Source of the DNA: an uncultured Candidatus Saccharibacteria bacterium
Lineage (GTDB): Bacteria; Patescibacteriota; Minisyncoccia; 2-02-FULL-40-12; GWA2-44-9
Direction: 5' to 3'
NCBI GenBank assembly: GCA_964513645.1
Contig: CAZENF010000001.1
Location: 135,303 to 199,302, forward strand
DNA: 64,000 nt
Positions 7,112 to 51,722 of this stretch are shown here, piece by piece. Below the pieces are notes generated by a model. The model was not told the origin of the DNA, did not search any database, and saw nothing but the letters and a program-made list of their open reading frames with translations. A program made the translations under genes and the position numbers. Each line of letters begins with the position of its first letter. Positions within the stretch are counted from its first letter, which is position 1.

Positions 7112-7113
7112 GA

Positions 7114-32740: not shown

Positions 32741-34369
32741 TTATCTTGCAACAACCATCGGATGACTGCCGATAATAAAGTTAACGATAGCCGCCCCGAG
32801 ACGAAGGAAAGGGTTGGATGAGGTCGGTGATGGAGGTGGAGGCAATGGAGGCTTAGGCGGCGGAGTTCCAGTAAAAGTACCGGGGCCTTCCTGGTGAGGC
32901 ATATTTGTTCCCGGACTGACCGAAGGTCTGACACAGGTGTGATTATCCGAATTCCACTGGCCGCCTAACTGGACGCATTTATCCGCATAACTTGAACACT
33001 GGCTGCCGTCCCAATAGTAGTACGGCTGACAGGCAGGCCTTGTCGGCATAGCTTCTCCGGGACTGGTTCCAGGCATTCCATGTTCCGACATCCCCTGCCC
33101 GGGCATCGGTGAACCGTTCAGACCTTGAGATTGTTCAAAACATTTTTTAACAACGGCTATCACATCGGGACTCAAATCCTTTGTATTCGGCGGAGTGTCT
33201 CCCGAGAAAAAGCTATAATTAGTCTCGCTCAAGTTTTCTTTAAGACATGAGAGTATCTGGGGCGGGAGTTTCATCGGATGAGGCGAACCCTGCGGATTAC
33301 CCTGGCCATTGGTCTGACCACCGCTCTGGCCTTGGAAACATTCTTTGGCTTTAGAGGTTGTCGTGCCGCTGGGCAGCAATTGACCGTTCTCAAGTTTGGT
33401 GATCGTGTCATCGCCAAGTTTCTGTTTTAAGCAGTTGAGAGTTTGGGGTGGCAAGTTTTGAAGTTTTTGTTTGACCTGGTCTGAATTTGATTTTATATCT
33501 TCGATAGTTTTCTTCGGAATAAGATTGTGTTCCTGGGCGAACTTGAGACAGGTATCGTGATTGGCGGCATCGTTGCAAAAAGCCGAGCACTCTTCTCTGC
33601 TCTTACACCCGCCCGGACCTTCACCTTTTGTTTCCTTAAAATCTCCGGCCTGATCTTTGGTCACAACTCCGAGCTTAAGTAAGAAATCAGCGCACTCCGT
33701 CGAATGAGAAGAATCGGAACAATATTGATGGCAATCTTGAGTTGTTTTGCACCCTCCGGGTGTCTGGCCGGACTGAACCAGTGAAAGAAATTTGGCTACC
33801 TTATCCGACTGGTCTTTGGGAATTAAATTATGTTCCTTTGCAAAAGAAAGGCATTCGTCCTGATGAGACGGGTCAGAACAGTATTGCCGACAAGTATCTT
33901 TACTTGAACAGCCGCCAGGACCGGTAGTCTCTTGTAAGGTGGAGTTAATTTTTGAATCAGCACTCGGAGTCTGTGGGGGTTTGGTCAGACCGTGAGCTTG
34001 GGCAAAGGTCTTACATTCTGATTGATTGTCAGGATTCTGGCAGTAAGTCCGACAGGAATCAAAACTGTCACAGCCGCCGGGACCGCCGCCGTTTTTTATG
34101 GCTTGAGCAAGATTACTAGCAGTTCCGCTATCACCGTTATTCGTTTTGGGAGTTAAATTGTGAGCCTGGGCAAAGGCCTGACAGGCAGGAATATTGTTAG
34201 GATCGTTGCAATACTGCCGGCAGGAATCCTTATCCTGACAATTTCCAAGCTCGGCTATCGGAAAAGTAATATTGGCGGTGGTCGCGGCAAAGACCACAAC
34301 CGCGAACAAGCCGCTTATGACCGAGGTAGCGATGATGAGTTTCTTATTCAAATGGGTTTTGATAAGCAT
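32741..34369 (-). CDS. Secreted/anchored protein with five ~52-aa Cys repeats (C-x5-C-x3-C-x8-C) and a Pro-rich C-terminus
   Basis: N-terminal TM/signal. Repeated PGGC(x)5C(x)3C(x)8C…FAQ(A/E)HNL units. A PPLPPPPSP tail. Confidence 0.6.
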   Translation of the reverse strand: MLIKTHLNKKLIIATSVISGLFAVVVFAATTANITFPIAELGNCQDKDSCRQYCNDPNNIPACQAFAQAHNLTPKTNNGDSGTASNLAQAIKNGGGPGGCDSFDSCRTYCQNPDNQSECKTFAQAHGLTKPPQTPSADSKINSTLQETTGPGGCSSKDTCRQYCSDPSHQDECLSFAKEHNLIPKDQSDKVAKFLSLVQSGQTPGGCKTTQDCHQYCSDSSHSTECADFLLKLGVVTKDQAGDFKETKGEGPGGCKSREECSAFCNDAANHDTCLKFAQEHNLIPKKTIEDIKSNSDQVKQKLQNLPPQTLNCLKQKLGDDTITKLENGQLLPSGTTTSKAKECFQGQSGGQTNGQGNPQGSPHPMKLPPQILSCLKENLSETNYSFFSGDTPPNTKDLSPDVIAVVKKCFEQSQGLNGSPMPGQGMSEHGMPGTSPGEAMPTRPACQPYYYWDGSQCSSYADKCVQLGGQWNSDNHTCVRPSVSPGTNMPHQEGPGTFTGTPPPKPPLPPPPSPTSSNPFLRLGAAIVNFIIGSHPMVVAR

Positions 34370-34683: not shown

Positions 34684-36186
34684 TTATCCGTCTAAACTTT
34701 CTTTTTCCCTGCCTTTAGCGGGCTTTTGATGTTCGAGCCATTCCTTTATAAGCATTGTTGCCCTGACATCATCTTCATTATACTTAAGTATTTTTTTCAT
34801 TATCGAGTCATCTTTTTTCTCAAGCCATTCATTATACCAGACGACCGATTCTGCTCCACCGGCTTCAGGGTCATTCCATTTGTAGCCGAGATACCCGGCT
34901 ACATCTTTTAAGCTGTAAAAATATAAAGGCAAGACGGCAGAATCAACTACTTGAGCATGAAGATCGATGGTATTGTCATGAAATTTATCCATTAAGGATG
35001 CCGGCGCACCATAACGGAGCGACAAGCGGTCAAAAACCTGCCTTTCATAATAGGCATAGTGGTAGATGACAAAATCATCAAGTCCGGCCAGGAAATCAAG
35101 AAATTTTTGCCATATTTTTTCCTCGTCTTTTTTTTCATTCGCTAGCAAATATTCATACTTTGCCTGACCACCGGTTTTAACAAGATAGCCCAACAGATAA
35201 TCAATATCGCGGGTTGGATCTGACTCGATATCGAAATATATCTCATGTTTAACCGTTGGCAAAACGCTTTTTCTCAATATCAACGGCTGCTGGGAAAGCA
35301 GGACCCTCGCCTGATTCGACATTCTGATGATTTTATCAAAAGGCCAGTCTTCGAGTTTTGACTGAAGCTCATTCACATCCGAGTTTGCAAGGTCAGAAAC
35401 GGTTTTAATTCCGATGCCATAGAATCTTCTTTGGTCGGCCTGACTTAAACGGTAAATGAGCGAGACATCGTCGCAATCTTTGGCGTCAGAGAAACACAGG
35501 GAATACCATGGGGTTTTTTTACAGGTTGATTTAATGAAAGGCGCCGGTTTTTCCCCGTCGAGGATCTTTTCTATTTGAAGACGGGTCAAATGGAATTGAT
35601 CGATAAAATCATCAACCTTGAACGAACGTTCGTTGCCTTGAGCGTCCATAACATATGCCTCCTTGGGCCTGACCCCCTGAAGACGCTCGAGCATCAAACT
35701 ATAAAAAATAAGTTGGAATTTATATTCGTCCCGCAGATCAAGAGTTGATTGAACATCATAGACAACATAATGCCAGTCACCTAAATTGGACTTACCCGGC
35801 CGGGCTTCCAATAAGTCAGGAATCCCCGCCCAGTCTTCCGACATCAGAACGCCGTGATAAATATTCTTGCCTTGTTTCATCAATTCAAGAGTGGCCAAAA
35901 AACCTTCTTCGAGGTCCTTTAAAAGTTCGGGTTTTATTTCTTCGAATCTTTTATGTTCTCTCAACGAACCGGCCGAATCGGAGGATTTGCCTTTATAGAT
36001 AAGCTCCATTATCGCCGGAGTTTTTTTCCTTTTGGTGGCATCAGCGTAAATGTCGTACCAAATCCAATGCGGGCATTGGAAAAATTTATAAAAATGTTCG
36101 GCGTAGAGTTTGGGCGCAGTTGGCATAATTATATATTGAGGTCTTGTATAACCTGAAAACGCGAAGCCATATCCACGTAGTGACAA
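34684..36186 (-). CDS. RecB-family PD-(D/E)xK nuclease with a C-terminal RNase-H-like domain (COG2251/TM0106-like)
   Basis: N-terminal FQCPHWIWYDIY, a GIPDLLE … YVVYDVQ core, a Cys cluster CKKTPWYSLCFSDAKDC, and a C-terminal YFDIESDP motif. Confidence 0.6.
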   Translation of the reverse strand: MSLRGYGFAFSGYTRPQYIIMPTAPKLYAEHFYKFFQCPHWIWYDIYADATKRKKTPAIMELIYKGKSSDSAGSLREHKRFEEIKPELLKDLEEGFLATLELMKQGKNIYHGVLMSEDWAGIPDLLEARPGKSNLGDWHYVVYDVQSTLDLRDEYKFQLIFYSLMLERLQGVRPKEAYVMDAQGNERSFKVDDFIDQFHLTRLQIEKILDGEKPAPFIKSTCKKTPWYSLCFSDAKDCDDVSLIYRLSQADQRRFYGIGIKTVSDLANSDVNELQSKLEDWPFDKIIRMSNQARVLLSQQPLILRKSVLPTVKHEIYFDIESDPTRDIDYLLGYLVKTGGQAKYEYLLANEKKDEEKIWQKFLDFLAGLDDFVIYHYAYYERQVFDRLSLRYGAPASLMDKFHDNTIDLHAQVVDSAVLPLYFYSLKDVAGYLGYKWNDPEAGGAESVVWYNEWLEKKDDSIMKKILKYNEDDVRATMLIKEWLEHQKPAKGREKESLDG

Positions 36187-36854
36187 TGGTCGCAGTGGCC
36201 CTTTTTTGGTTTGTCGATAGGCGCTTTTTCAGAGCGGGCTATTTCAACCGCTCTGGTAAAAGCTTCGCCGACCCAGTCTGTGTTGACCACGACCGGCCGG
36301 ACATCTTCCTTAAACTTAAGAGCATTGGCAAAACCATCCTCGCCTTCTTTGATGACCTGATAAAAAACAAAGAACGCTTCAGGATAAGTCTGATGCCCTT
36401 TCTGTTTCAGAATATAATTGTAAACTTCCATCTGCCGGCGATAGTCTTCGTAAATGGTAATTTCTTTTGAACCGGAGGATTTGTAATCGATGACCGCCAA
36501 AGAACCGTCATCAAATTCGAGAATATCGTCCACCGCACCGTAAAGTGTTGCGTTCAAATGCTCGTCATAATAAGCTACGCCTTTGAAATTATTCCTCCAT
36601 TCGGATAATTCCGGTCCGGTAAACAACTTAGCGTCCTTGATGCCGAATTTTTTCAAAACCGGCGGCAAAGTGCCTTCATTGCGGTATTTGTCGAATTCTT
36701 TTTTAACCAGGAAATCCACCGCGGCAGATAAAGTATAGGGATAGCCGGGCGGACGTTTTATCTTATGATGGAGGTCAAGCCAAAAACATCTCGGGCATTC
36801 GAGAAAAAGATTAAGCCCGCTCCGTGAAATTTTTATTGTACCTAAATTACTCAC
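36129..36854 (-). CDS. Cas4-like PD-(D/E)xK exonuclease (DUF83 family)
   Basis: LECPRCFWL, AVIDYKSS (DYK) and C-terminal HCDHC. Four Cys suggest an Fe-S cluster. Confidence 0.7.
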   Translation of the reverse strand: MSNLGTIKISRSGLNLFLECPRCFWLDLHHKIKRPPGYPYTLSAAVDFLVKKEFDKYRNEGTLPPVLKKFGIKDAKLFTGPELSEWRNNFKGVAYYDEHLNATLYGAVDDILEFDDGSLAVIDYKSSGSKEITIYEDYRRQMEVYNYILKQKGHQTYPEAFFVFYQVIKEGEDGFANALKFKEDVRPVVVNTDWVGEAFTRAVEIARSEKAPIDKPKKGHCDHCHYVDMASRFQVIQDLNI

Positions 36855-36915: not shown

Positions 36916-37641
36916 TTACTTCTTCAATCTCTGTCTTAATTTCTGCCAATTACCGTCAAATATTTCATCAGCTAATCCCCAACTGACCGTATCCCGTGGG
37001 CTCAAATAGACGTCTTCTTTTTTATCCATCTGGCTTTGGAGAATTTCTTTTATATATCTCTTGGGCTTTTTTGAATAAATACCCTTTTCCTTCATTCGGC
37101 TTGCATATATCTCGAGCATGTTTGGATTATCCCTTTCCGCCCATTTCATAGTTGAATGGGAAGTTTTCCACGTTCCAGAAACAGCGATCGTACCTTCGTG
37201 AAACATAAAACTGCTGTTGGGCATCATCACACGCTTGTTGGCGGCCTGAAAAATTATTGAGCTCATTGAACGGGCATGAGTATAGTTAAGAATAACGATC
37301 GGATTTTGGGCAAAACGTATCGTATCATATATCGCCATGCCCTCACTCCAATCTCCACCATCCGTTTTCATATGAATAAGGATAGGGCGCTTAGAGTCAA
37401 TATCCGCAAGTATATGCAGATTCTTTATCAAGCGCGCACTCATCTGATATTCGACACCTGGCTCTTCACGATTATCCCATTCGTCATCAGCATCGTATTC
37501 CATTTTTTCCCCGGTCAAATATATCGCAAACTGTCGGACATCAAGATTCCACTCCTGGACTGCGTAGATAGATTCGTGCATTTCTGTGCCGAACATTCGG
37601 GACTTAAACGATTTTCGGCTTTGAGACATTCGGTAACTCAA
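36916..37641 (-). CDS. ClpP-family serine protease with an N-terminal extension
   Basis: ILIHMKTDGGDWSEGMAIYDT … ARSMSS … MFHEG … LSPRDTVSWGLADEI aligns to the ClpP Ser/His/Asp regions. Confidence 0.7.
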   Translation of the reverse strand: MSYRMSQSRKSFKSRMFGTEMHESIYAVQEWNLDVRQFAIYLTGEKMEYDADDEWDNREEPGVEYQMSARLIKNLHILADIDSKRPILIHMKTDGGDWSEGMAIYDTIRFAQNPIVILNYTHARSMSSIIFQAANKRVMMPNSSFMFHEGTIAVSGTWKTSHSTMKWAERDNPNMLEIYASRMKEKGIYSKKPKRYIKEILQSQMDKKEDVYLSPRDTVSWGLADEIFDGNWQKLRQRLKK

Positions 37642-37788: not shown

Positions 37789-38808
37789 ATGAGAAGACCG
37801 ACCAAGCTTTTTCCTGAAATAAAAGAAATAAGATATGAATTTTTACAGCCCAAGACGGTTCCCGCACCCGAATCTGAAAAAAAACCTGCCGCTTCTCAAG
37901 CAAATGAAATACACCGGGTTTATTATGAAGTTTGCGGAAATCCAAAAGGCAAGCCGATAGTTTTTTTGCCGGGCGGACCGGGCGGCGGACTTGAACCGAA
38001 AGACAGACGTTTCTTTGACCCTAAAAAATGGCGCATCTTCCTAATAGAATTACGTGGTTCTGGCAAATCAAAACCTTCCCGTGAACTCGAAAACAACACT
38101 ACTCAACACGCTGTTTCAGATATATTTCAGATCTTAGAAAGAAACAAGATTAAAAGGGCCGCTTTTTTTGGAGGCTCCTGGGCTTCTTGCTTAGCTTCAG
38201 TTTATACCATAACCCATCCTGAAACTGTGTCCGGTCTTGTTTTGAGAGGAATATTTTTAGGAGAAGAAGAAGAGACCGAAGATTACTTTTCCGGCAAATT
38301 GGCAAAAACCGAATACGCAAAGAAGGCATGGCAAAGATTTTTCAATCACGCCAATCCTGAATTAGGCTGGACTACCCAGATGTATTACTACCATCAGATG
38401 AATTCCAAAAAAGAAGCCGACTTCAGGCGGGAATACTTTGCCTATGAGTGGTGCCGATATGAAACCTGCCTTCTTTATCAGAAGCCGAAACCGGAAGCTG
38501 AGATAGAGAAAGAGATCCGAAGCTGCAACTTTGAGGCCTGGGCCCTGATGGAAGCCCATTATTTTGTCCATAATTGTTTCATTGAAGACAGATTCATCAT
38601 TAACAACGCTTCAAAATTCCCCGATGTGCCCGTCAGCATCATCCAAGGCCGCGATGATATGGTCTGTCCGCCAAAGAGCGCCCACCGTCTTCACAAAGCA
38701 TTACCTGGTTCGTCGCTCTATATGGTCAATGCCGGCCATTCTTCAAGCGAACCGGAAATTTTAAAAAAATTAGTCTCCGAGATTGATATCCTTTACGATA
38801 AAATCTGA
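37789..38808 (+). CDS. pip: Proline iminopeptidase (alpha/beta hydrolase, S33)
   Basis: VYYEVCGNPKGKPIVFLPGGPGGG N-terminal signature, a GGSWAS nucleophile elbow, and C-terminal NAGHS. Confidence 0.85.
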   Translation: MRRPTKLFPEIKEIRYEFLQPKTVPAPESEKKPAASQANEIHRVYYEVCGNPKGKPIVFLPGGPGGGLEPKDRRFFDPKKWRIFLIELRGSGKSKPSRELENNTTQHAVSDIFQILERNKIKRAAFFGGSWASCLASVYTITHPETVSGLVLRGIFLGEEEETEDYFSGKLAKTEYAKKAWQRFFNHANPELGWTTQMYYYHQMNSKKEADFRREYFAYEWCRYETCLLYQKPKPEAEIEKEIRSCNFEAWALMEAHYFVHNCFIEDRFIINNASKFPDVPVSIIQGRDDMVCPPKSAHRLHKALPGSSLYMVNAGHSSSEPEILKKLVSEIDILYDKI

Positions 38809-38826
38809 TCCCCTGCGGGGGATCAT

Positions 38827-39849
38827 TTAATTTTTAGTGCTGTAGATTATTTTGCCGTTCTCAAAAACATGGAAAGAATCGTTCTCTTCAGAAACTGTAA
38901 AAATAGTTGTGCCCTTGAAAACATATGAAGCGGTGATCGCGGATAAATGTCGTGAATGGACCTTTCCCCTGAACCCGAACTGTTCAGACAGGTCTTTGAA
39001 TTTTCCAGGATTAAGCTTATCGGCGATAACCCGCGGGCGCAAACCCTCGATAATTATTCCTGAATGGATAATATTGCCGTGACGATCTATCAGGATCGCA
39101 CCGTCAAAATTAACCGTCGTTTCAAAGTCATATTTGTGGGTCTTATAATGCTCGAGGATGTTCTGACGATGCTTTACATATATATCCTGTCCGGAATCGG
39201 GCAGATCGGTAAATTTTCTCCACTTATCCTGCCAACCTAAAATGACAAAAAGACCAAAACCTCTTTTCTGGTTCATCAGTTTAAGGATGAGTTTTGAGGT
39301 TTTTAATCTTAATTTTTCAGGAAATTTTATTTTTGACCGCTGAAAAACGTTTTTTAACTCATAGAGCATCTTTTCGATATCAAGCACCCGGACCGGTTTT
39401 AACCTGTCGACATATTTGGCTAGAAGCCAGGAACTCGACTGAACTTTACCACCTTTACCAATATTAAATATCATTTTTGCGCCGACCTTGCGGCAGGCTT
39501 CGACTTCAGGAATATCATTCTCATTCTTCCTGTCTCCGCCGTTGGCAAAAATATCTGGTTTTATTTTGAGTATCTCTTTAGAAACGCTCATATCCTTCGG
39601 ATTTTTGGGGTGACCGGTTATAACAACCGCATCCACACCGAAGATGGATTCGATTACCTCTTTGCGCTCTTTTTGATGCATAAAAACATGGTTCTTCTTT
39701 TTTTTGAGCCAGTTATCGTTGTTTAATATTACAATCAGCCGGTCACCTAGTTTTTTGGCCTCTTGGAACATCCGAATATGGCCGATGTGAACCGGGTCAA
39801 ATCCACCTGAGACAACGACGGTAGTTAATTTTTTTTCACCTATATTCAT
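38827..39849 (-). CDS. Fusion of a HIGH-motif nucleotidyltransferase (cytidylyltransferase-like) with a DAC-like (diadenylate-cyclase/DisA_N-like) domain
   Basis: N-terminus GGFDPVHIGHIRMF. The C-terminal region (~38827-39280) carries GFGLFVI, DGAILIDRHGNII, HSRHLSAI (RHL in place of RHR) and TVSEE. Confidence 0.6.
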   Translation of the reverse strand: MNIGEKKLTTVVVSGGFDPVHIGHIRMFQEAKKLGDRLIVILNNDNWLKKKKNHVFMHQKERKEVIESIFGVDAVVITGHPKNPKDMSVSKEILKIKPDIFANGGDRKNENDIPEVEACRKVGAKMIFNIGKGGKVQSSSWLLAKYVDRLKPVRVLDIEKMLYELKNVFQRSKIKFPEKLRLKTSKLILKLMNQKRGFGLFVILGWQDKWRKFTDLPDSGQDIYVKHRQNILEHYKTHKYDFETTVNFDGAILIDRHGNIIHSGIIIEGLRPRVIADKLNPGKFKDLSEQFGFRGKVHSRHLSAITASYVFKGTTIFTVSEENDSFHVFENGKIIYSTKN

Positions 39850-39850
39850 A

Positions 39851-40324
39851 TTAAATACTTGTTACCTCCTTAAGGTCGCTTGAAATTATTTCGTCATGGC
39901 CTCTGAACAAAAAATGGCCCTTAAACTTCTTGCCTTCAAGACACAATGGCAGCCAATATTTATCGTCCGGCCACATTTGATCAAAAGGGATCTCTTTGAT
40001 GTCGAACCATTGCGGTTTCATCTCTTCGCTTTCAACAAATTCGCCTGTAAAGTCCGGGGTTTTAAACACGTTAACCTCAAGGATTACCGGATCATTAAAA
40101 AACTCAAAATTTATCACGCCAACCCTTTCAATCGAACCAGTTTTTATGCCCGCTTCTTCATAAAGTTCTCTCCGGGCGGCGTCTTCGAGCAATTCCCCAG
40201 GTTCAACCTTTCCACCGAAGCCGTTCCACCTGCCGGCTCCGAATCCCCTTTTTTTCATACCTAAAAGAACCTGCGTATGCTTATGAACTATACATAGAGT
40301 TAAGATTGTTTTGCTTTTTTCCAA
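39851..40324 (-). CDS. NUDIX hydrolase
   Basis: Nudix box GGKVEPGELLEDAARRELYEEAGI. Confidence 0.85.
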   Translation of the reverse strand: MEKSKTILTLCIVHKHTQVLLGMKKRGFGAGRWNGFGGKVEPGELLEDAARRELYEEAGIKTGSIERVGVINFEFFNDPVILEVNVFKTPDFTGEFVESEEMKPQWFDIKEIPFDQMWPDDKYWLPLCLEGKKFKGHFLFRGHDEIISSDLKEVTSI

Positions 40325-40325
40325 A

Positions 40326-40814
40326 TTATTCGCGAGGAATATTTAACTTTTTACGCATTATCATAACCAGGACAAAAAGAGTTGTCGACGAAGCGGCAGA
40401 AGTTAAACAATAGATACAGAGTGCTTTTAGGATAAATATCTGAATGCCTAACAAACTCAATGACACCAAAAACGCCGCTGTGGTCATGAGACTTAAAAGT
40501 TTAAGCCAAATATTCCCGCCGTAAAGGTCGTATATATTTACAGCCAAGAAGACCGAGGCATAGAAACCTAAACCCCACCAACTTAAATGAATGCCGGCAA
40601 AAACAGAATATTTACTGGTCAGAACTTTTTCGCAACCGTTAACAATAATACACTTGATAGTACCTCCATAGATCTCATTGAGTATCAGATAGAGAGTGTC
40701 GCCGATGCCGACAAGAGAAACGGCCATGACGGACCATGGCCAAAGCTTAGACGGTTTAACCTGGGTATTATTTTCCGGCGAGGGCTTGATCGATGAGAGA
40801 TTTGAATCCATCAT
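40326..40814 (-). CDS. Vitamin K epoxide reductase (VKOR)-family membrane protein
   Basis: TM protein with the Cys motif KCIIVNGCEKVLTSKYSVFAGIHLSWWG. It is adjacent to a DsbA-like gene. Confidence 0.65.
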   Translation of the reverse strand: MMDSNLSSIKPSPENNTQVKPSKLWPWSVMAVSLVGIGDTLYLILNEIYGGTIKCIIVNGCEKVLTSKYSVFAGIHLSWWGLGFYASVFLAVNIYDLYGGNIWLKLLSLMTTAAFLVSLSLLGIQIFILKALCIYCLTSAASSTTLFVLVMIMRKKLNIPRE

Positions 40815-42164: not shown

Positions 42165-42437
42165 TCAGAAAACAGCGAATTTGGACCAGTTTTTTGGGTC
42201 TAATATTCTGCCCACTCGAAGATCAAACCTGTCAGACAAAAGAAGGCAATTAGAATCTGAAACGATAGGCATTATTTTCCAGATTAATTTTTTAGAATTG
42301 AGATCATGCCGACCCTGGACAATAAGAAAGGTATCGTGTTTTTTCTGCCAAGCCACAACGGTCCAAACATCTTCAGGTTTATTTGCAGAACAGATAACGT
42401 CTCCGGGTTTTAATTCCCGGAACTCCATGTCTCTCAT
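42165..42437 (-). CDS. Hypothetical small protein (internal start chosen)
   Basis: The ORF's N-terminal 66 aa are Arg-rich and of low plausibility. Start proposed at MRDMEF. Confidence 0.3.
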   Translation of the reverse strand: MRDMEFRELKPGDVICSANKPEDVWTVVAWQKKHDTFLIVQGRHDLNSKKLIWKIMPIVSDSNCLLLSDRFDLRVGRILDPKNWSKFAVF

Positions 42438-42535
42438 CGGCAGACCGATAAACAAGGACTGGCCAGATATTATCATATTTGAAATGATTTTACAAAAATA
42501 CATTTGTATTGTATAAATATGGCTGGAGGTGAGAA

Positions 42536-42712
42536 ATGGTAGGAACGAGAGACGACTACGAAAGAACCGCCACCGCGGTTGCCTGGAGAGTCGCCGCCCT
42601 CGTCGCATTTGTTGCCTGGATAGCAACCGGCTCATTCATGATAGGTCTGGCCTGGGGAGTTCTGTGCATCCCTCTTCCGTGGATGCTAACCTATTTCACA
42701 CGCCATCCCTGA
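42536..42712 (+). CDS. High-GC small membrane protein (58 aa)
   Basis: AGGAGGTGA RBS upstream. One TM helix. GC-rich. Followed by a T-tract hairpin. Confidence 0.35.
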   Translation: MVGTRDDYERTATAVAWRVAALVAFVAWIATGSFMIGLAWGVLCIPLPWMLTYFTRHP

Positions 42713-43227: not shown

Positions 43228-46014
43228 TTATTTTCCATGGCATTTCTTGTATTTTTTCCCTGAACCACACCAACAAGGGTCGTTGCGGCCCGCCTTAACT
43301 TCGCCCTGGCGAGGCGAGCCAGGTTCGGGATGGTCATTTTGAAGCGGCCGATGAGATGGTTCGTTTATTTGAGTTTGATGTGTATGCTGGTCAACGGTAA
43401 CATCCGGCCTGCCCGCCAAAGTTTCAACGACGGCGGGACGACGTTCTTCCATTTTAACTTCGCGTGGTTGCTGCATCATCTGGACCTTGAAGATCGTGTT
43501 GGCAAACTGGCCTTTGACCGAATACTGAAGATTTTCAAACATTTTCTGGCCTTCTATCTTATACTCGATGAGAGGGTCACGTTGGCCGTAAGCCCTCAAC
43601 CGTACCGAATCACGCAAAGATTCCATCGCTTCAATATGATCCATCCAAAGTTCGTCGATCGTCCGGAGAAGGACAAACCTTTCGAGCTGGCGCATCATTT
43701 CCGGACCAAGACTTTTTTCTCTGTTTTCATAGGCCTTAACAACGTAATCAATGACGAAATGCGCGAAGTTATGATGATCGTGGTCACCGGCCGCCTCGAG
43801 AAGTTTAGAATGAAGAGCGTCGTCCTGTCCGATAATAGATTTGAGAGCTTCGGCAATCTCTTCAATATTCCACTCTCCCCCGTCTTCGGGCGCATGAACC
43901 GCAACCATATTATTCACTACATCTAAAATATAGCCCATAACCGTTTCCCGGATATTTTCAGACAACAAAACCTCATGCCGCAAACGATAAACCGCTTCAC
44001 GATGTTTGTTCATCACATCATCATATTCGAGAACATATTTTCTAATATCAAAATTATGCCCCTCGATCCGTGTCTGGGCCTGTTCTATTGCGCCAGATAT
44101 GAATCGATTCTCGATAACATCGTCTTCGCCTATTCCAAGAGTTTCCATCATATTCTTTAAACGGTCGCCGCCGAAAATGCGGATAACATCATCTTCGGTT
44201 GAAACAAAGAATTGCGATGAACCGGGATCACCCTGACGGCCGGAACGGCCACGAAGCTGGTCATCTATCCGGCGGGCTTCGTGTCGTTCGGTACCGATGA
44301 CATGCAGACCGCCAGCCTGTCTGACTTTTTCAGATTCTTCTTTGTCGGGCGGATTGCCGCCCAAAATTATATCGACGCCACGGCCGGCCATATTCGTGGC
44401 CACCGTTACCGCACCCAAGCGTCCGGCCTGGGCATGAAGTTCAGCTTCTTTTTCATGCTGTTTGGCGTTTAAAACATTATGTCTGACGCCTTCCCGGTCG
44501 AGAAGTTTAGACATCAGCTCATTTTTTTCTATTGAAACCGTTCCAATAAGAACCGGCTGGCCTTTTTCATGTCGTTCCTTTGCTTCTCTCGCCACTGCCC
44601 GGAACTTGCCCATTTCGGTTTTGTATATTCGGTCAGCTAAATCATCACGAATTGCAGTTTTGTTGGTCGGAACAGAAACAACGTCAAGACTATAAACTTT
44701 GTGGAACTCTTCAGCGGATGTCCTGGCCGTTCCTGTCATTCCGCCCAATTTTTTATATAAACGGAAATAATTCTGAAAAGTTATCGTGGCCAGAGTTCTG
44801 GATTCTTTCTGAACGCTTACACCTTCCTTGGCCTCAACGGCCTGATGAAGACCTTCAGACCAGCGTCGGCCCGGCATTAAACGTCCGGTAAATTCATCGA
44901 CAATGATAACCTCGCCGTCTTTAACAACATAATCTCTATCGCGCTTGAAAAGTATCTGGGCTTTTAATGCCTGCTCCAGATGATGAACATAACGAATTCC
45001 GCCTTGGTCATAGATATTCGAAAGACCAAGAATTTTCTCAACTTTTTCGATGCCGGCCTCGGTTATGGACACAGCTTTTAATTTTTCATCGACATTATAG
45101 TCGTCATTTTCAACAAGCCGCGGAGTAACCTTGGAGAATGTCCGGTAAAGTTCGGTAGAATCTGTATCGGGAGCAGAGATTATAAGAGGGGTCCTGGCTT
45201 CGTCAATCAAAATTGAGTCAACTTCATCCACTATCGCAAAATTAAATTCACCAGTTCTTTGAGACATTTGCTTAACGTCATAGGCCATATTATCCCTAAG
45301 ATAATCAAATCCATATTCGTTGTTGGTCCCATAAGTAATATCTGCGCCGTAGGATTCTTTTTTATCGACTGGACGTAGAAATTCATGAACAACATGAAAA
45401 CTTCCAATAGTATCCCTTTCTTTATCCAATTCTTTTTCTGATTTTGAATTTTGATTATTAGGATTTTGGATTTGTTTGGAATTTGGCGCTTGGAATTTGG
45501 AATTTGTACTTATATGACTTTCGTCATATAAGTAGCTGGCATCATGATTGATACAACCGACTGTCAGACCCAGAGCATTGTATATCTGGCCCATCCAGGC
45601 CGCATCGCGTCTGGCCAGATAATCGTTGACCGTCACCACGTGCACACCTTTGCCCGATAAAGCGTTCAGATAAGCGGGTAAGGTGGCAACCAAGGTTTTA
45701 CCTTCACCGGTCCGCATTTCGGATATCTTTCCCTGATGAAGTACTATGCCGCCAATCAGCTGGACGTCAAAATGTCTCTGGCCGAGAGTTCTTTTTGAGG
45801 CTTCGCGAACCGCTGCAAACGCTTCCGGCAGAATATCATCCAGAGTTTCTTCTTTATTGATCCGTTTTTTGAATTCTGATGTTCTGGCCTTTAATTCAGC
45901 ATCTGAAAGCTTCTCGTAATTTTTTTCGAGTTCGTTTATTTTTTCTATTACTGGCTCAAGCGATTTAACGTAGCGTTCGTTCGCGTCGCCGAAAATTTTG
46001 CCTAAAAATGACAT
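43228..46014 (-). CDS. secA: Preprotein translocase ATPase SecA
   Basis: Full-length SecA with a C-terminal zinc finger CWCGSGKKYKKCHGK. It contains an in-frame low-complexity insertion at 45440-45532. Confidence 0.95.
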   Translation of the reverse strand: MSFLGKIFGDANERYVKSLEPVIEKINELEKNYEKLSDAELKARTSEFKKRINKEETLDDILPEAFAAVREASKRTLGQRHFDVQLIGGIVLHQGKISEMRTGEGKTLVATLPAYLNALSGKGVHVVTVNDYLARRDAAWMGQIYNALGLTVGCINHDASYLYDESHISTNSKFQAPNSKQIQNPNNQNSKSEKELDKERDTIGSFHVVHEFLRPVDKKESYGADITYGTNNEYGFDYLRDNMAYDVKQMSQRTGEFNFAIVDEVDSILIDEARTPLIISAPDTDSTELYRTFSKVTPRLVENDDYNVDEKLKAVSITEAGIEKVEKILGLSNIYDQGGIRYVHHLEQALKAQILFKRDRDYVVKDGEVIIVDEFTGRLMPGRRWSEGLHQAVEAKEGVSVQKESRTLATITFQNYFRLYKKLGGMTGTARTSAEEFHKVYSLDVVSVPTNKTAIRDDLADRIYKTEMGKFRAVAREAKERHEKGQPVLIGTVSIEKNELMSKLLDREGVRHNVLNAKQHEKEAELHAQAGRLGAVTVATNMAGRGVDIILGGNPPDKEESEKVRQAGGLHVIGTERHEARRIDDQLRGRSGRQGDPGSSQFFVSTEDDVIRIFGGDRLKNMMETLGIGEDDVIENRFISGAIEQAQTRIEGHNFDIRKYVLEYDDVMNKHREAVYRLRHEVLLSENIRETVMGYILDVVNNMVAVHAPEDGGEWNIEEIAEALKSIIGQDDALHSKLLEAAGDHDHHNFAHFVIDYVVKAYENREKSLGPEMMRQLERFVLLRTIDELWMDHIEAMESLRDSVRLRAYGQRDPLIEYKIEGQKMFENLQYSVKGQFANTIFKVQMMQQPREVKMEERRPAVVETLAGRPDVTVDQHTHQTQINEPSHRPLQNDHPEPGSPRQGEVKAGRNDPCWCGSGKKYKKCHGK

Positions 46015-46549: not shown

Positions 46550-48319
46550 TTATCTTGTGATTTCAACTCCGTTCTTATAGTAGTTCAGTTCCAGGTCACT
46601 TATGGTAAATATTGCATTCCAGTCCCGACCAGAAGCATCCCATTGAGCTGGAGTAAGGTGAAGCCAGTGCTTGGTTCCGGAGGCGATTCCCGTAGAAGTT
46701 CCTCCACGGGAACCTTCGCCTTGCTCCGGCCAAACGGCATACACCTTCTGGTCATTGGCATATTTAACGTAATTTGAAGTTTGGTATGAATCAAAAACTT
46801 CCGGCTCCGGAGAAACCGCCTTCGAAGGGTCAAGTTGTCCGTAAAGTTTAACCACATCCGAGTTAAGATAGCGTTTGTATTTGCCCGAGATAACATATAA
46901 TTCTTTTTCGGTGGGTCTTTTGATCAGCATTCCATCTTGAAGAAGAGGAATATTTTTAACATCCGAACTTTTTACCGAAGAAATCTTTATATTTATCCCG
47001 AAAAGCATCTCATCAGTTCCAAAGTCAGAAATTTTGGTATCTTTGGTCGCAACAACGATCACCTTATCCAAATGTTTGTCCGAAGAATTTACGACAAAAC
47101 CAGTCCCGGAAGCGTTATTTACATTTATCTTATCCAGTCTAACCTGCCCATTACTGTAATAGCTTACTGTTCCAGCAAGGTAACTCTGCCCATTCTGTCC
47201 AGTAACATCTACCCTGAAACTTTGGTTCGGGTCGTTCGATAATTGGCTGACATTGAATTCAAGCCATAAGGGCTGCCAATCTTTGATAGTTTTATAAAAA
47301 TTGTATTCCTGAAGTCCGGGTGAAAGATATATCGTCTGCTCCGGAACAACATGGACAGAGTTAAGACCGGCACGAGTATAACCCAAAACCGGGTCAGCGC
47401 CGATGTTATTCGTATAAACAGCCCCCATCCAATCGACAAAAACATCGCCGAAATTTTCGTAACTGCCATGACTGGCAAGATATTTGTTTATCGAATCAAT
47501 GCCATATGAAGAACCTTTTAAAGTATCGGATAAAATAGAATTTCCGAACCTTTCTGTCAGGTACTCTCCTACCATATTCGCGGCCGCGTAATCAGTTACT
47601 GAATTGGGCCACTCGGTCAGACTATCAGAAGGTTTTTCCAAAAAATCTTGGACCCTATTATCGAGATTTGAACCAAGATAAACATCATTATAACCAAGCA
47701 AGGTTATTGAATATTCAGAGCGGAGTTCGTTTAACCAAGTGGATTCTTGGGAATGACGAAGTAATTCTTTCTGATTAAATGAGATCAGATGCTGGAACTC
47801 GTGCGCCATAAATTCTTTGGCCAGATCGCCTCCGGTTCGAGACAACACATCGCTATTCATGAACATCATTTCTCTTTGATTCGAAGTGGAAACAAGTGAA
47901 CGTGAATATTCATTGGCACTGTTAAAATCCCCGCCGTTGTTTTTTATAAGCTGAGTTACCAGAAGAGTTATCTTTGGGTCATTGTCTATCCCTGGATTTG
48001 GTTCTGAGCCCCAGAATTGGATTTCTTTCGGGTAAATATTGGAATCGAATTCGCTAGTCAATGAGGTTATGTTGGCCACAAGAGAACTTTGTTGTGCCAT
48101 ACTAAGAGAGTTCCAGTAATCATCTTCGACATAGACATATAACTTGTCGCTTGTTTGGCGAAGAGTTGCCGAAACACTTGAGCGACTAAATTTATCGAAC
48201 ACTCGATTAACATAAAAATTTTGACGCTGGCCGACAGTATCAGCAAAAGTTGTGCCGACAAAAAAAAGAAAAAGTAAATAAATTAAAAAAGGATATAAAA
48301 ATTTAGGCCATCTTAGCAT
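46550..48319 (-). CDS. Large secreted protein with an HExxH motif (possible metallopeptidase)
   Basis: Signal peptide and the motif FMAHEFQHLISF. No other recognisable domains. Confidence 0.45.
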   Translation of the reverse strand: MLRWPKFLYPFLIYLLFLFFVGTTFADTVGQRQNFYVNRVFDKFSRSSVSATLRQTSDKLYVYVEDDYWNSLSMAQQSSLVANITSLTSEFDSNIYPKEIQFWGSEPNPGIDNDPKITLLVTQLIKNNGGDFNSANEYSRSLVSTSNQREMMFMNSDVLSRTGGDLAKEFMAHEFQHLISFNQKELLRHSQESTWLNELRSEYSITLLGYNDVYLGSNLDNRVQDFLEKPSDSLTEWPNSVTDYAAANMVGEYLTERFGNSILSDTLKGSSYGIDSINKYLASHGSYENFGDVFVDWMGAVYTNNIGADPVLGYTRAGLNSVHVVPEQTIYLSPGLQEYNFYKTIKDWQPLWLEFNVSQLSNDPNQSFRVDVTGQNGQSYLAGTVSYYSNGQVRLDKINVNNASGTGFVVNSSDKHLDKVIVVATKDTKISDFGTDEMLFGINIKISSVKSSDVKNIPLLQDGMLIKRPTEKELYVISGKYKRYLNSDVVKLYGQLDPSKAVSPEPEVFDSYQTSNYVKYANDQKVYAVWPEQGEGSRGGTSTGIASGTKHWLHLTPAQWDASGRDWNAIFTISDLELNYYKNGVEITR

Positions 48320-48346: not shown

Positions 48347-49252
48347 TTACTTAAGACCCGACAAGGATTTGAGTTCTGCAAGACCTTCCTCGATCTTTAC
48401 CCTTGGCTTCCATCCGAGTAGTTTAAGGGCGAGGGAATTGTCGGCTAAAGTGTGTTTAGGTTCAAGCCGGGCCGGGATATATTTGACCGGTCCGCCGATA
48501 AGTTTGGTAATGAGGTTTATAGACTGGTTCTTACCGGCTCCGATATTAATGACCTCGCCGTGGCCCACTTTTTTTGAGCTCATCGCCAGAATATTCGCCC
48601 GGACAACATCCCTGACATGAGTAAAATCTCTGGTCTGTTCGCCGTCGCCGGTAATAGTCATCGGCTCGCCAAATGAACGCTGTTTTAGAAATCTGCCGAC
48701 GACAAGAGCATAAGCACCCTCGGGATCGAGCCTTGGTCCGTAGACATTAAAGTAACGAAGTGAAACGGTGGACAGTCCGTATATTTCACTCCAGAGACGG
48801 CAATAAAGTTCACCGATATATTTTTGGAGACCGTAAGGACTTTTTGGCATTGCCGGAAAATTTTCTTTTAAAGGCATTTTTTTCTGGTCGCCATAAACGG
48901 AACTTGAGGCTGAATATATCAGACGTTTAACTCCGGCCTTCTGGCTAGCCATCAGAACATTCAATGTTCCCGAAACGTTAGTCTTGTTGGCAGTATCGGG
49001 TTCTTCGATCGAGAACTGTACACGCGGTAAAGCGGCAAGATGAAAAACATAATCCACCCCTTTAAAAAGCGGTTCAATCGCTCCGAGGTCGTTTATATCT
49101 CTAACATAAAGCTTCGCTTTTTTATTTACGTTTTCCTTTTTGCCGTTGGACAGATTGTCTATGACCAAAACCTCAAAACCTTGTTCGATAAGAGCATCCG
49201 TTAAATTTGAACCGATAAATCCGGCTCCACCGGTAACAAGTGCTTTTTTCAT
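48347..49252 (-). CDS. NAD-dependent sugar epimerase/dehydratase (UDP-glucose 4-epimerase-like SDR)
   Basis: Rossmann motif VTGGAGFIGSNL and a YxxxK catalytic motif. Confidence 0.85.
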   Translation of the reverse strand: MKKALVTGGAGFIGSNLTDALIEQGFEVLVIDNLSNGKKENVNKKAKLYVRDINDLGAIEPLFKGVDYVFHLAALPRVQFSIEEPDTANKTNVSGTLNVLMASQKAGVKRLIYSASSSVYGDQKKMPLKENFPAMPKSPYGLQKYIGELYCRLWSEIYGLSTVSLRYFNVYGPRLDPEGAYALVVGRFLKQRSFGEPMTITGDGEQTRDFTHVRDVVRANILAMSSKKVGHGEVINIGAGKNQSINLITKLIGGPVKYIPARLEPKHTLADNSLALKLLGWKPRVKIEEGLAELKSLSGLK

Positions 49253-50223
49253 TGTCTTATTTTTTTCCGCTTTTGAAGAATTATCTCCTTGTCATGCCTG
49301 GAAACTTCGGCCATGGCCAGACCTTGAGACTTAATAAGCGTTTCGTTATAGTTTCTGACTGATTTTAAAACCGCCAGACCCGCCTTCATTACGTTTAAAT
49401 GTTCTTTGTCGAGAATTTTTTTATCCGTTGCACTTTTTTCGAGTTCTTGACCAAAAGCAATGAAAGCATTCATATCCTTCGGAAAACAATAGCCCCCGGC
49501 ACCGGAATAATCTCCGTGGTTAACGTTGAGCCAGGCCGGACCGATCCGTAGATCGGCTCCGATAATTTCCCGGATATTATCATAATCAACTTTAATACCT
49601 CGAACCTTTATCATTGCATAACAAAGATCGGCCAGAATATTGCCGTAGATAACTTTTACATAACCAAAAACATTTGAAGCATATTTGCCAAATTCAGCTT
49701 CTGTAGCATTGACCGATTTTTTTGAGTAATCCGAAGTCCAGGGACGTATGAAATTTTTCTTAGGCAAGAGATTAAGAACTTCCACAGTGTCCGAAACGCT
49801 TTTAGCAGTGTGGCCGATTATCTGGCGATCGGGTGACAAAAAATCCTCCCAGGCCTGTGATTCGGTCAAAAATTCAGGATTAAATATGAGGCGTTTTTTA
49901 GGATATTTTTTTTGAAGACTTTCAATAGTCCCCGGAACAATCGTTGATTTAACAACCACCACTTTTCCCTCCTTTATTGACGCAACCGCCGCTTCAACGA
50001 GAGAAGTATTACAGCTACCGTCCGGGTTTGGAGGAGTCGGAACAGAAACAAATATTATATCCGCCAGATTCACATCATCAGTATAACCTTTCTTCGGATC
50101 AACATCGTAGCAAAACAGGTCACGCCCACGTTTATAACCGTTTATTTCTTCGAACCATTTTCTTATCGGTCCGCCGACCATGCCGATACCGATAATGCCT
50201 ATTTTTAGTTTGGTTCGTGACAT
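49249..50223 (-). CDS. UDP-glucose/GDP-mannose 6-dehydrogenase family protein (short)
   Basis: IGIIGIGMVGGPI N-terminal Rossmann motif. NPEFLTESQAWEDFLSPDRQIIG family signature. Confidence 0.7.
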   Translation of the reverse strand: MSRTKLKIGIIGIGMVGGPIRKWFEEINGYKRGRDLFCYDVDPKKGYTDDVNLADIIFVSVPTPPNPDGSCNTSLVEAAVASIKEGKVVVVKSTIVPGTIESLQKKYPKKRLIFNPEFLTESQAWEDFLSPDRQIIGHTAKSVSDTVEVLNLLPKKNFIRPWTSDYSKKSVNATEAEFGKYASNVFGYVKVIYGNILADLCYAMIKVRGIKVDYDNIREIIGADLRIGPAWLNVNHGDYSGAGGYCFPKDMNAFIAFGQELEKSATDKKILDKEHLNVMKAGLAVLKSVRNYNETLIKSQGLAMAEVSRHDKEIILQKRKKIRQ

Positions 50224-50305
50224 TGATTAAGAATATACCATTAAAATAGTTATGAGTCAATTGGTTGACTAAACAATGGTTTTGCTTTATTATATTTAAT
50301 AATTA

Positions 50306-50410
50306 TGAATCCCGTACGAAGTCAGATTCGCTTTAAAAGTGCGAATTAGGCAGATATTCTTAAGACTTCTTCGTAACATGATTTCAACGGGATACTTCGT
50401 ACGGGATGAA
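50306..50410 (+). repeat. IR element copy 2 (105 bp)
   Basis: ATGAA|TCCCGTACGAAGT … ACTTCGTACGGG|ATGAA. The downstream ATG (50406) is the sugar-transferase start. Confidence 0.7.
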
Positions 50411-51722
50411 GAGATTTGGCCTTCTTTTTCTTGATATAGCCGCATTATATGCTGCTTTAACTTTAACGGTCCTTGTAAGATATCCGGATAATTTTGCTTA
50501 CCAATTCGGCCTCCATTCCGGGCCTTTTTTGTTCCTTTTTATTTTATGGCTCATGGTTTTTTATATTACCAATCTTTATGAGCTAAGTTTTCTTAAGAAT
50601 AATATAAATTTTTATACCAGTATTTTCCGAGCAATAGCTTTTGCTTCGTCAATCTCTATCGGTGTGTTTTATCTGCTGCCGATATTTAGCATCACTCCAA
50701 AAACCAACCTGGCTATTTTTATAGTCATATTTGCGGGAATAGTCATGGGCAGCCGGACCCTATTCAATAGGGCCAGCACCAAAGGCGCCAAGAGACCCCT
50801 TCTCATTGTCGGAGTTAACCAACAAACTCTTGATCTTGCAAAATTCATCGAACAAAATCCTCAACTCGGCTACGAACTTAAATACATAATGGATATCGGT
50901 AAAGAAGGCATCCGCGACGTCGACAAATTAATAAGACGGGAGAGAATAAACACGGTTGTCATTGCGCCCGAGGCCTATCAGGTCCCGACAATAGTTGATG
51001 TTTTCTACCGCTCACTCGACAATCAGGTTACTTTTAAGAACCTGTCGAATTTTTACGAAGAACTTACCAATCGTGTTCCTTTGGGTGCAATAAATCAGAT
51101 CTGGTTCCTGGAAAATTTAAGTGAAGGCAACAAAAGAACATACGAGGTCTTGAAAAGATTCTTTGATATTATTTTTTCGGTTCTCTTAAGCATAGTTGTC
51201 CTGCCATTTATACCTCTATTCTCTCTGGCCGTTAAACTCGAATCGTCCGGGCCGGTGTTTTATCGTCAAAGAAGACTGGGACAGAACGGAAAAATATTCG
51301 AGATAATAAAATTCCGGACCATGTCCAAAGATGCCGAGGCAAAAAGCGGCGCGGTTTGGGCCAAAGAGAACGATTCCCGCATTACCCGGCTCGGAAAAAT
51401 ATTCAGAAAGGCGAGAATAGATGAGTTGCCACAGCTTTGGAATATTTTAAGAGGTGAAATGTCGTTTGTCGGTCCAAGAGCCGAAAGGCCCGAGTTCCAT
51501 GACAAATTAAAGAACAACATCCCTTTTTATGAAGGGCGTTACATAATTAAGCCAGGTCTCTCGGGCTGGGCCCAGATAAATTACCGCTACGGTTCGTCCG
51601 TAGAGGATGCGGCAGAAAAACTTCAATATGATCTCTACTACATCAAGAACCGTTCGCTTATTCTTGATCTGGGTATCATTCTAAAAACAATAGATATTTC
51701 TCTTAAGCAGGAGGGTCGGTAA
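50406..51722 (+). CDS. Polyprenyl-phosphate sugar-phosphate transferase (bacterial sugar transferase / WbaP-like)
   Basis: C-terminal catalytic domain KFRTM … DELPQLWNILRGEMSFVGPR plus N-terminal TM helices. Confidence 0.85.
   Translation: MKRFGLLFLDIAALYAALTLTVLVRYPDNFAYQFGLHSGPFLFLFILWLMVFYITNLYELSFLKNNINFYTSIFRAIAFASSISIGVFYLLPIFSITPKTNLAIFIVIFAGIVMGSRTLFNRASTKGAKRPLLIVGVNQQTLDLAKFIEQNPQLGYELKYIMDIGKEGIRDVDKLIRRERINTVVIAPEAYQVPTIVDVFYRSLDNQVTFKNLSNFYEELTNRVPLGAINQIWFLENLSEGNKRTYEVLKRFFDIIFSVLLSIVVLPFIPLFSLAVKLESSGPVFYRQRRLGQNGKIFEIIKFRTMSKDAEAKSGAVWAKENDSRITRLGKIFRKARIDELPQLWNILRGEMSFVGPRAERPEFHDKLKNNIPFYEGRYIIKPGLSGWAQINYRYGSSVEDAAEKLQYDLYYIKNRSLILDLGIILKTIDISLKQEGR

Follow-up and report, generated by a model that had tools for sequence, protein, structure and literature searches.

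A minus-strand gene in a 64,000-nucleotide (nt) stretch of contig CAZENF010000001.1 from an uncultured Candidatus Saccharibacteria bacterium (the whole stretch is referred to as the window) encodes a cytidylyltransferase-family nucleotidyltransferase fused to a domain related to diadenylate cyclases (DAC). Across the loci compared, it is not the fusion but the DAC-like module that forms the conserved unit, a point overlooked by an earlier note on this DNA, and sequence relationships mark the module as a distinct Patescibacteria/DPANN subfamily. The parts of the gene and of its product (aa, amino acids; AF2, AlphaFold2) are:

38827..39849, minus strand: whole fusion gene, an open reading frame (ORF) of 340 aa comprising nucleotidyltransferase, two-helix linker and DAC-like domain.
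39412..39825, minus strand: N-terminal cytidylyltransferase-family (HIGH) domain, aa 9-146, recognized by Pfam, TIGR00125, Foldseek and a PDB profile search.
39778..39789, minus strand: HIGH (HxGH) nucleotide-binding signature, aa 21-24, read from the sequence.
39430..39438, minus strand: SSS motif, aa 138-140, counterpart of the second signature of the superfamily (ISST/GISTT).
39268..39378, minus strand: two-helix segment, aa 158-194, with AF2 helices at 158-170 and 178-194.
38839..39267, minus strand: predicted DAC (DisA_N)-fold domain, aa 195-337, recognized by Pfam, by the family profile against PDB and by the domain model.
39097..39105, minus strand: DGA motif, aa 249-251, invariant in 149/149 fusions.
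38962..39048, minus strand: family-specific segment of ~20-29 aa, aa 268-296, following the DGA strand and preceding the RH helix.
38938..38958, minus strand: HSRHLSA, aa 298-304, counterpart of GTRHRAA, with R and H kept and the second Arg replaced by Leu.
38884..38895, minus strand: VSEE, aa 319-322, counterpart of the CdaA motif VSEETG.

The position of this ORF, as given in the earlier note, and the peptides quoted there from its product agree exactly with the sequence: GGFDPVHIGHIRMF (containing HIGH), GFGLFVI, DGAILIDRHGNII (containing DGA), HSRHLSA and TVSEE (aa 318-322). A protein identical to the fusion (P0001) is present on a 304-kb NCBI contig.

The homology of the C-terminal domain to diadenylate cyclases can be regarded as secure on sequence and modelling grounds, because Pfam, reverse profile search and structure model agree independently: (i) Pfam DAC (DisA_N, PF02457) aligns with aa 195-333 and covers positions 9-118 of its 119-position profile, with E = 6.2e-6 and 26.2 bits, i.e., 0.8 bit short of the gathering score of 27 and significant by E-value; (ii) the family profile, searched against all PDB sequences, has solely diadenylate cyclases as its best matches (CdaA 8ofg with E = 7e-5, then 9g69, 7l8n and 6gyw), and its alignment with CdaA places GTRHlsA opposite GTRHRAA residue by residue and SEETG opposite SEETG; (iii) a domain-only model derived from an alignment of 45 diverse sequences (pLDDT 92.4, pTM 0.89), has 67 PDB matches at E <= 1e-3, the top 50 in Foldseek being all DisA, CdaA, CdaM, DacM or CdaS (prob 1.00). 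The DAC-like region described in the earlier note, which had let the assignment depend on a significant DisA_N match, is thereby borne out. Individually, 39 of 44 DAC-like relatives match Pfam DAC (E <= 0.01; best 8.6e-11), and the C-terminal half of the full-length AF2 model matches DisA of M. tuberculosis. Template modelling scores (TM) of ~0.5-0.6 against solved DACs, at 11-17 % identity, constitute a moderate fold match, and the modelled fold is that of a DAC which has clearly diverged. Chance or convergent similarity of an unrelated domain, to which this low identity and a Pfam score just below gathering could be credited, is effectively refuted by three concurring independent lines, motifs in register and a top 50 composed entirely of DACs.

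The divergence is visible in length, the Pfam DAC alignment accommodating 139 residues over 110 profile positions. A family-specific insert of ~20-29 aa that is not found in canonical DACs lies beside the active site; it carries ten invariant residues (E268, G269, L270, P272, D286, L287, S288, Q290, F293 and K296) and AF2 helices at 272-279 and 287-290. Stand-alone DAC-like relatives have the two-helix segment preceding the domain (residues 9-21 and 29-45 of the domain-only model) as their N-terminal extension, as seen when the sequences are aligned. In relatives with split genes, these end and start at the boundary of this segment.

Active-site positions were tabulated for 331 DAC-like sequences, including 149 nucleotidyltransferase fusions, 104 stand-alone proteins of the candidate phyla radiation (CPR) and 49 DPANN-type proteins. 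Invariant in all 149 fusions are D249, G250, A251, R300, H301, S320, E321, E322 and K296, and position 302 is always Leu. The replacement of RHR by RHL, reported in the earlier note for the single protein, is thus no one-off: Leu302 also prevails in the CPR stand-alone proteins (88/104; the remainder Ile, His, Tyr, Met, Ser or Phe), DPANN-type proteins mostly have Thr, Ile, Leu or Val, and Arg occurs at the third RHR position in 0/331 sequences. The acidic SEE(T) segment aligns with VSEETG of CdaA, a metal ligand in CdaA structures. Taken together, these alignments suggest that the catalytic positions are under purifying selection.

Homologues of the entire fusion are numerous (2039 matches at 90 % clustering). 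The best 120 of these 2039 are 318-357 aa long and 63-80 % identical, and named homologues come from Yanofskybacteria, Taylorbacteria, Paceibacterota and the 'Patescibacteria group'. When 1.84 billion representatives clustered at 50 % identity were scanned exhaustively by HMMER with the last 191 aa of the protein, just 91 clusters were recovered at E <= 1e-3, mostly stand-alone proteins of ~185-260 aa in which the whole query including the helices was matched. Some of the stand-alone proteins originate from DPANN archaea (Woesearchaeota, archaeon AR17), and the DAC-like subfamily appears to be confined to Patescibacteria and DPANN archaea. A few clusters carry the automatic names 'diadenylate cyclase' or 'DisA', and precomputed Pfam annotation lists DAC for only ~1/3 of the top 120 fusion homologues.

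Scanning one genome per GTDB species for the gene yielded 56 loci, nearly all from Parcubacteria/Paceibacteria-type Patescibacteria. The fusion first noticed in the window recurs among them, the nucleotidyltransferase being fused to the DAC-like module in 19/56 loci. The other 37 contain a stand-alone DAC-like gene, in five cases with an orthologous nucleotidyltransferase gene that is adjacent and overlaps it. In Yanofskybacteria GCA_001794195, three separate genes encode a CTP_transf_like protein (150 aa), a DAC-like protein (185 aa), the start codon of which overlaps the stop of the preceding gene, and a NUDIX protein (312 aa). Since the split pair shares 63 % (aa 3-144) and 57 % (aa 159-337) identity with the window protein, the two genes are orthologues of the fusion halves. 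Azambacteria possess the DAC-like gene alone in the same locus slot, which is conserved as S30AE and SecA upstream, followed downstream by a variable peptidase/hydrolase gene, PDDEXK_1 and an RNase_H_2-type nuclease. The window fits this arrangement (SecA 43228-46014, PDDEXK_1 36129-36854, RNase_H_2 34684-36186). This housekeeping locus has the DAC-like module as its constant and ancestral gene, with transferase and NUDIX as recurrent, optional companions. A second DAC-like gene was not found in the window by tblastn.

Five classical cyclase architectures were considered (CdaA, DisA, CdaS, CdaM and DacZ), and the fusion fits none of them, being devoid of transmembrane helices, the DisA linker and helix-hairpin-helix (HhH), and a PK_C-like domain. 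The closest layout is that of CdaS (YojJ) from Bacillus sporulation (PDB 2fb5), a small soluble protein of ~200 aa in which N-terminal helices precede the DAC domain as in aa 150-340 of the fusion; it is among the structural matches of the domain model (TMq 0.49, ~16 % identity) and likewise possesses DGA and SEE-type acidic residues. CdaS differs, however, in having RHR, where the DAC-like family has RH plus a hydrophobic residue and ~20-29 additional aa between DGA and RH; moreover, the family resides in Patescibacteria/DPANN and is often fused to, or located beside, a nucleotidyltransferase or NUDIX protein. CdaA/DacA provides the best sequence-profile matches (8ofg, 9g69, 7l8n, 6gyw; TMt up to 0.60), but is membrane-anchored by three transmembrane helices and possesses both RHR and the stacking Tyr, whereas the fusion protein is predicted to be soluble. 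Since RHR is missing and no classical architecture applies, the protein is classed as a divergent DAC-fold member fused to a cytidylyltransferase-family enzyme and not as a diadenylate cyclase. The DAC fold and both domain families are already known, and some members are automatically annotated as diadenylate cyclase. Galperin's 2023 census of DAC architectures reportedly distinguishes 22 DAC families; in the literature outside this census, no description was found of the CTP_transf_like-DAC architecture or of the RH-L motif variant.

The N-terminal nucleotidyltransferase, recognized in the earlier note by its HIGH motif, is assigned by scores above the curated cut-offs: CTP_transf_like (PF01467) matches aa 14-106 with E = 7e-14 and 52.5 bits (cut-off 21), and TIGR00125 of NCBIfam scores 53.9 bits (cut-off 27.7). 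The best specific NCBIfam models, rfaE_dom_II (RfaE domain II/HldC, TIGR02199; 70.4 bits) and TagD (TIGR01518; 62.5 bits), fall far short of their equivalog cut-offs of 181.5 and 165.4, respectively. Fold matches in Foldseek are 3glv, HldC, the Fom1 CyTase and TagD; the domain profile retrieves ECT, 3glv and TagD from PDB, 3glv being the sole full-length alignment; and the N-terminal half of the full-length AF2 model (pLDDT 85, pTM 0.56) matches HldC, TagD and 3glv. Thus, the domain belongs to the cytidylyltransferase family of the GCT/ECT/RfaE-II/RibL type. With respect to the acceptor substrate, the NCBIfam, PDB sequence/profile and fold searches all lead to this clade without discriminating among its members. 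It shares the fold, HxGH, the Lys pair and SS(S/T) with TagD (GCT), ECT/CCT, HldC/RfaE-II and the RibL-type 3glv, none of which carries a DAC-like C-terminal domain, and it is 63 % identical to a 150-aa stand-alone gene product in locus L011. Among 93 homologues, G23 and H24 are invariant, H21 is conserved in >=90 %, and S139 and S140, within the SSS aligned to NSSSS of 3glv, are again invariant; the Lys pair K51 and K52 as well as E61 and R62 are also conserved. Because HxGH, Lys pair, E61, R62 and SSS are conserved, the domain should be catalytically active, and would then transfer a nucleoside monophosphate from ATP or CTP to a phosphorylated small molecule with release of pyrophosphate.

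As to the function of the whole, we tentatively favour, at somewhat less than even confidence, a variant diadenylate cyclase coupled to or tuned by its nucleotidyltransferase partner, a reading based on sequence and on analogy with known cyclases. The earlier note had named two options, an unconventional cyclic-dinucleotide synthase and a DAC-derived regulatory domain. For the DAC-like module we infer nucleotide binding, catalysis, product and coupling alike. The module would bind an adenine nucleotide and a divalent metal and, as a head-to-head dimer, would join a 3'-OH to an alpha-phosphate by nucleotidyl transfer, forming cyclic di-AMP (c-di-AMP) or a close relative; the family-specific insert, including the invariant Lys296, may replace the lost second Arg. 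The nucleotidyltransferase, fused or adjacent, would act as a partner enzyme coupling or tuning the cyclase, as does GlmM, a precursor-making enzyme, for CdaA (PMC8573169). What is shared with this pair is the concept of physical coupling between a cyclase and an enzyme that makes its precursor; here, by contrast, the partner is covalent and belongs to another enzyme class, and the cyclase activity is putative. An active enzyme is favoured because Asp, Arg-His and Glu-Glu are strictly invariant and the module often stands alone. The module also looks autonomous, since it occurs without fusion partner, as a protein of ~185-230 aa, in 37/56 loci, always in the same housekeeping slot, and has a helices-plus-DAC layout resembling that of CdaS. 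In favour of coupling, the transferase is intact and linked to the module by fusion or by an adjacent gene.

Several observations weigh against an active cyclase. To our knowledge, characterized diadenylate cyclases all carry DGA and RHR, and Arg is missing from the third position throughout the DAC-like family. The adenine-stacking Tyr of CdaA/DacM is kept in part of the family and is Ile/Met in the fusion group, and the SEE glutamates are missing in ~1/4 of DPANN-branch sequences. To these add the moderate fold match and the insert beside the active site. Mutation of RHR to AAA abolished ATP binding and activity of canonical enzymes (PMC3328451, PMC13022847, PMC4568413). In DacM, the first Arg of RHR, which touches the ribose, is essential (bioRxiv 10.1101/2022.03.11.483894), and it is this Arg that the DAC-like family has kept. 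Regarding the second Arg, the literature searched, including residue-level work on CdaA, contained triple RHR-to-AAA or first-Arg mutants only and none isolating it. A published biochemical test of any family member was not found in the literature searched, and neither a c-di-AMP riboswitch nor another c-di-AMP component was found in the 64-kb window, Rfam yielding one tRNA only.

The losses in the RHR motif, the stacking Tyr and, in part of the DPANN branch, the decaying SEE glutamates would be expected for a DAC-derived sensor or regulator that is no longer a cyclase and has an adenine nucleotide (ATP, ADP, c-di-AMP or another) as its ligand, controlling the nucleotidyltransferase or NUDIX protein in cis if fused and in trans if stand-alone. 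We regard this as a serious, though rather unlikely, competitor. It is consistent with the second Arg being gone in 331/331 sequences, with the canonical triple mutant devoid of ATP binding and activity, and with one module being joined to two kinds of enzyme (nucleotidyltransferase and NUDIX), as is typical of regulatory modules. On the other hand, Asp, the first Arg, His and both Glu are invariant in the 149 fusions and almost invariant in the 104 stand-alone proteins of the CPR, a conservation exceeding what binding alone usually needs. Degenerate signalling domains usually drop metal-binding acidic residues first, and the module is constant and mostly alone, without an output domain.

The NUDIX companions bear on a further reading. 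In the window, the gene preceding the fusion and the hairpin following it are:

39851..40324, minus strand: upstream NUDIX gene with a 1-nt gap to the fusion; Pfam NUDIX E = 7e-17; MTH1/NUDT1-like.
38806..38825, no strand assigned: palindromic hairpin TGATCCCCTGCGGGGGATCA between the convergent stops of the fusion gene and an alpha/beta hydrolase gene; terminator-like on both strands.

Across the 56 loci, six have ORFs with a NUDIX box on the same strand and no more than 1.5 kb away, corresponding to 7/323 nearby ORFs versus 0/684 distant ORFs (Fisher p = 3e-4), and four or more protein clusters consist of NUDIX-DAC-like fusions in which the NUDIX box is intact. Because of this enrichment next to the gene and these fusions, the NUDIX link to the DAC-like gene is real, even though the partners represent different subfamilies and no single orthologous group. 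In the DPANN loci examined, no link to nucleotidyltransferase or NUDIX was found. The product of the window gene matches human MTH1 over its full length in PDB (E = 2.6e-55, aligned from residue 3) and is, as judged from this similarity, probably a nucleotide-pool sanitizer of the MTH1/NUDT1 type. MTH1 homology also supports the 157-aa frame starting with TTG, and the 135-aa call on the public contig (L001) is apparently too short.

An active enzyme with altered chemistry would accommodate the NUDIX link. Its product would either retain a pyrophosphate/triphosphate (linear pppApA) or arise by transfer to the ribose 3'-OH of a nucleoside diphosphate derivative (NDP-X) made by the nucleotidyltransferase, and NUDIX would be the degrading partner of a synthase/hydrolase pair. 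NUDIX enzymes cleave pyrophosphate bonds, which are absent from c-di-AMP, yet NUDIX genes are enriched nearby and fused to the module; a pyrophosphate-containing product would explain this. The family-wide change moreover sits in the motif reported as necessary for ATP binding, and the conserved insert adjoins the active site. We nevertheless consider this reading unlikely: the NUDIX partners are of differing subfamilies (that of the window MTH1-like, i.e., house-cleaning), adjacency is limited to ~6/56 loci, DPANN relatives have no nucleotidyltransferase or NUDIX link, and the DAC fold offers no precedent for such chemistry. One may further speculate, as a long shot, that the RH-hydrophobic module synthesizes a nucleotide distinct from c-di-AMP and that the NUDIX proteins hydrolyse it, together constituting a new pathway of ultra-small symbiotic prokaryotes; candidates may be a linear 5'-triphosphorylated dinucleotide or an NDP-X adduct, with a role in signalling or in a cofactor pathway.

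An association of a HIGH-family nucleotidyltransferase with NUDIX is also known from NadM-Nudix (NMN adenylyltransferase/ADP-ribose pyrophosphatase). The respective NCBIfam models, however, reach only E 1e-3 to 2e-2, the window NUDIX is separate and MTH1-like, and the constant partner here is the DAC-like module.

An animal-MTH1/NUDT1-like NUDIX protein (oxidized purine nucleoside triphosphate hydrolase) is striking in a CPR bacterium. In Yanofskybacteria GCA_001795655 (L003), NUDIX genes of two subfamilies (5603-6001 and 7016-7450) flank the fusion, with stops and starts overlapping or abutting; the upstream one is an MTH1-like orthologue of the window NUDIX (65 % identity).

The earlier note had placed the fusion last in a tight operon. 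The gene order Maf, DsbA-like, VKOR, NUDIX, fusion stands, with gaps of 62, -47, +1 and +1 nt. Maf may be a separate transcript because of the 62-nt gap and a terminator-like hairpin at its end. As to partners hinting at function, NUDIX holds up by its enrichment and fusions, and VKOR, DsbA and Maf were rejected, since most relatives lack them near the gene. The 47-nt overlap (40768-40814) is between the DsbA-like and VKOR ORFs; in relatives L002/L003 this pair overlaps too, suggesting translational coupling or a mis-called start. About 6 kb from this disulfide-forming pair, a 542-aa protein without Pfam match (32741-34369, minus strand) contains an N-terminal hydrophobic segment and ~5 Cys-rich repeats (GGPGGC.S.D.CR.YC.DP....EC..FA..H.L).

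A defence-system (CBASS-like) reading was likewise rejected, there being no PADLOC hit for the protein and a housekeeping slot by SecA; the PD-(D/E)XK neighbours (PDDEXK_1, RNase_H_2-type) display merely weak, generic Cas4-like similarity. Both of these, i.e., PDDEXK_1 (~240 aa; 36129-36854, minus strand) and the RNase_H_2-type nuclease (~480-500 aa; 34684-36186, minus strand), are found downstream in every CPR locus examined (L002-L014). A ClpP-like protein of the window (36916-37641, minus strand; 241 aa), with an N-terminal extension of ~60 aa, occupies a slot held in relatives by an unrelated small ORF on the opposite strand. Two further ORFs of the window have no Pfam match: one of 589 aa (46550-48319, minus strand) and one of 156 aa (42165-42635, minus strand), the latter lying between SecA and Maf, with a GC-rich terminator-like hairpin (42154-42138) after it. 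A sugar-nucleotide/glycan cluster at 48347-51722, comprising an NAD-dependent epimerase/dehydratase, a UDP-glucose/GDP-mannose dehydrogenase-like gene whose N-terminus may be truncated and an initiating sugar transferase (Bac_transf), is a possible consumer of nucleotide-activated precursors.

In two different genomes of DPANN archaea (L015 5001-5750, L018 5001-5699), the stand-alone DAC-like gene is oriented head-to-head with a gene for a 328-aa HTH_24/AsnC-type regulator and lies beside genes for a class Ib aminoacyl-tRNA synthetase and a LigT-type 2',5'-RNA ligase/phosphoesterase. In a single woesearchaeotal case (L017 6418-6813), the DAC-like gene has a gene for a CTP-dependent riboflavin kinase 3 kb away, which is of interest because the N-terminal domain of the window protein is closest to the 3glv/RibL-like group.

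We know of no description of c-di-AMP signalling in Patescibacteria or DPANN archaea. A gut-genome census found no gut Patescibacteria species with a DAC (PMC12901056). Here, a large and strongly conserved subfamily retains all catalytic motifs save the second Arg of RHR. The stakes are moderate, since neither the fold nor the two domain families are new and some members are automatically named diadenylate cyclase. If the module is active, Patescibacteria and DPANN archaea would own a cyclase that is often missed by annotation with hidden Markov models at gathering thresholds, and what the RHR motif does would have to be reconsidered; should the module be inactive, the subfamily would provide a clear case of a cyclase turned sensor.

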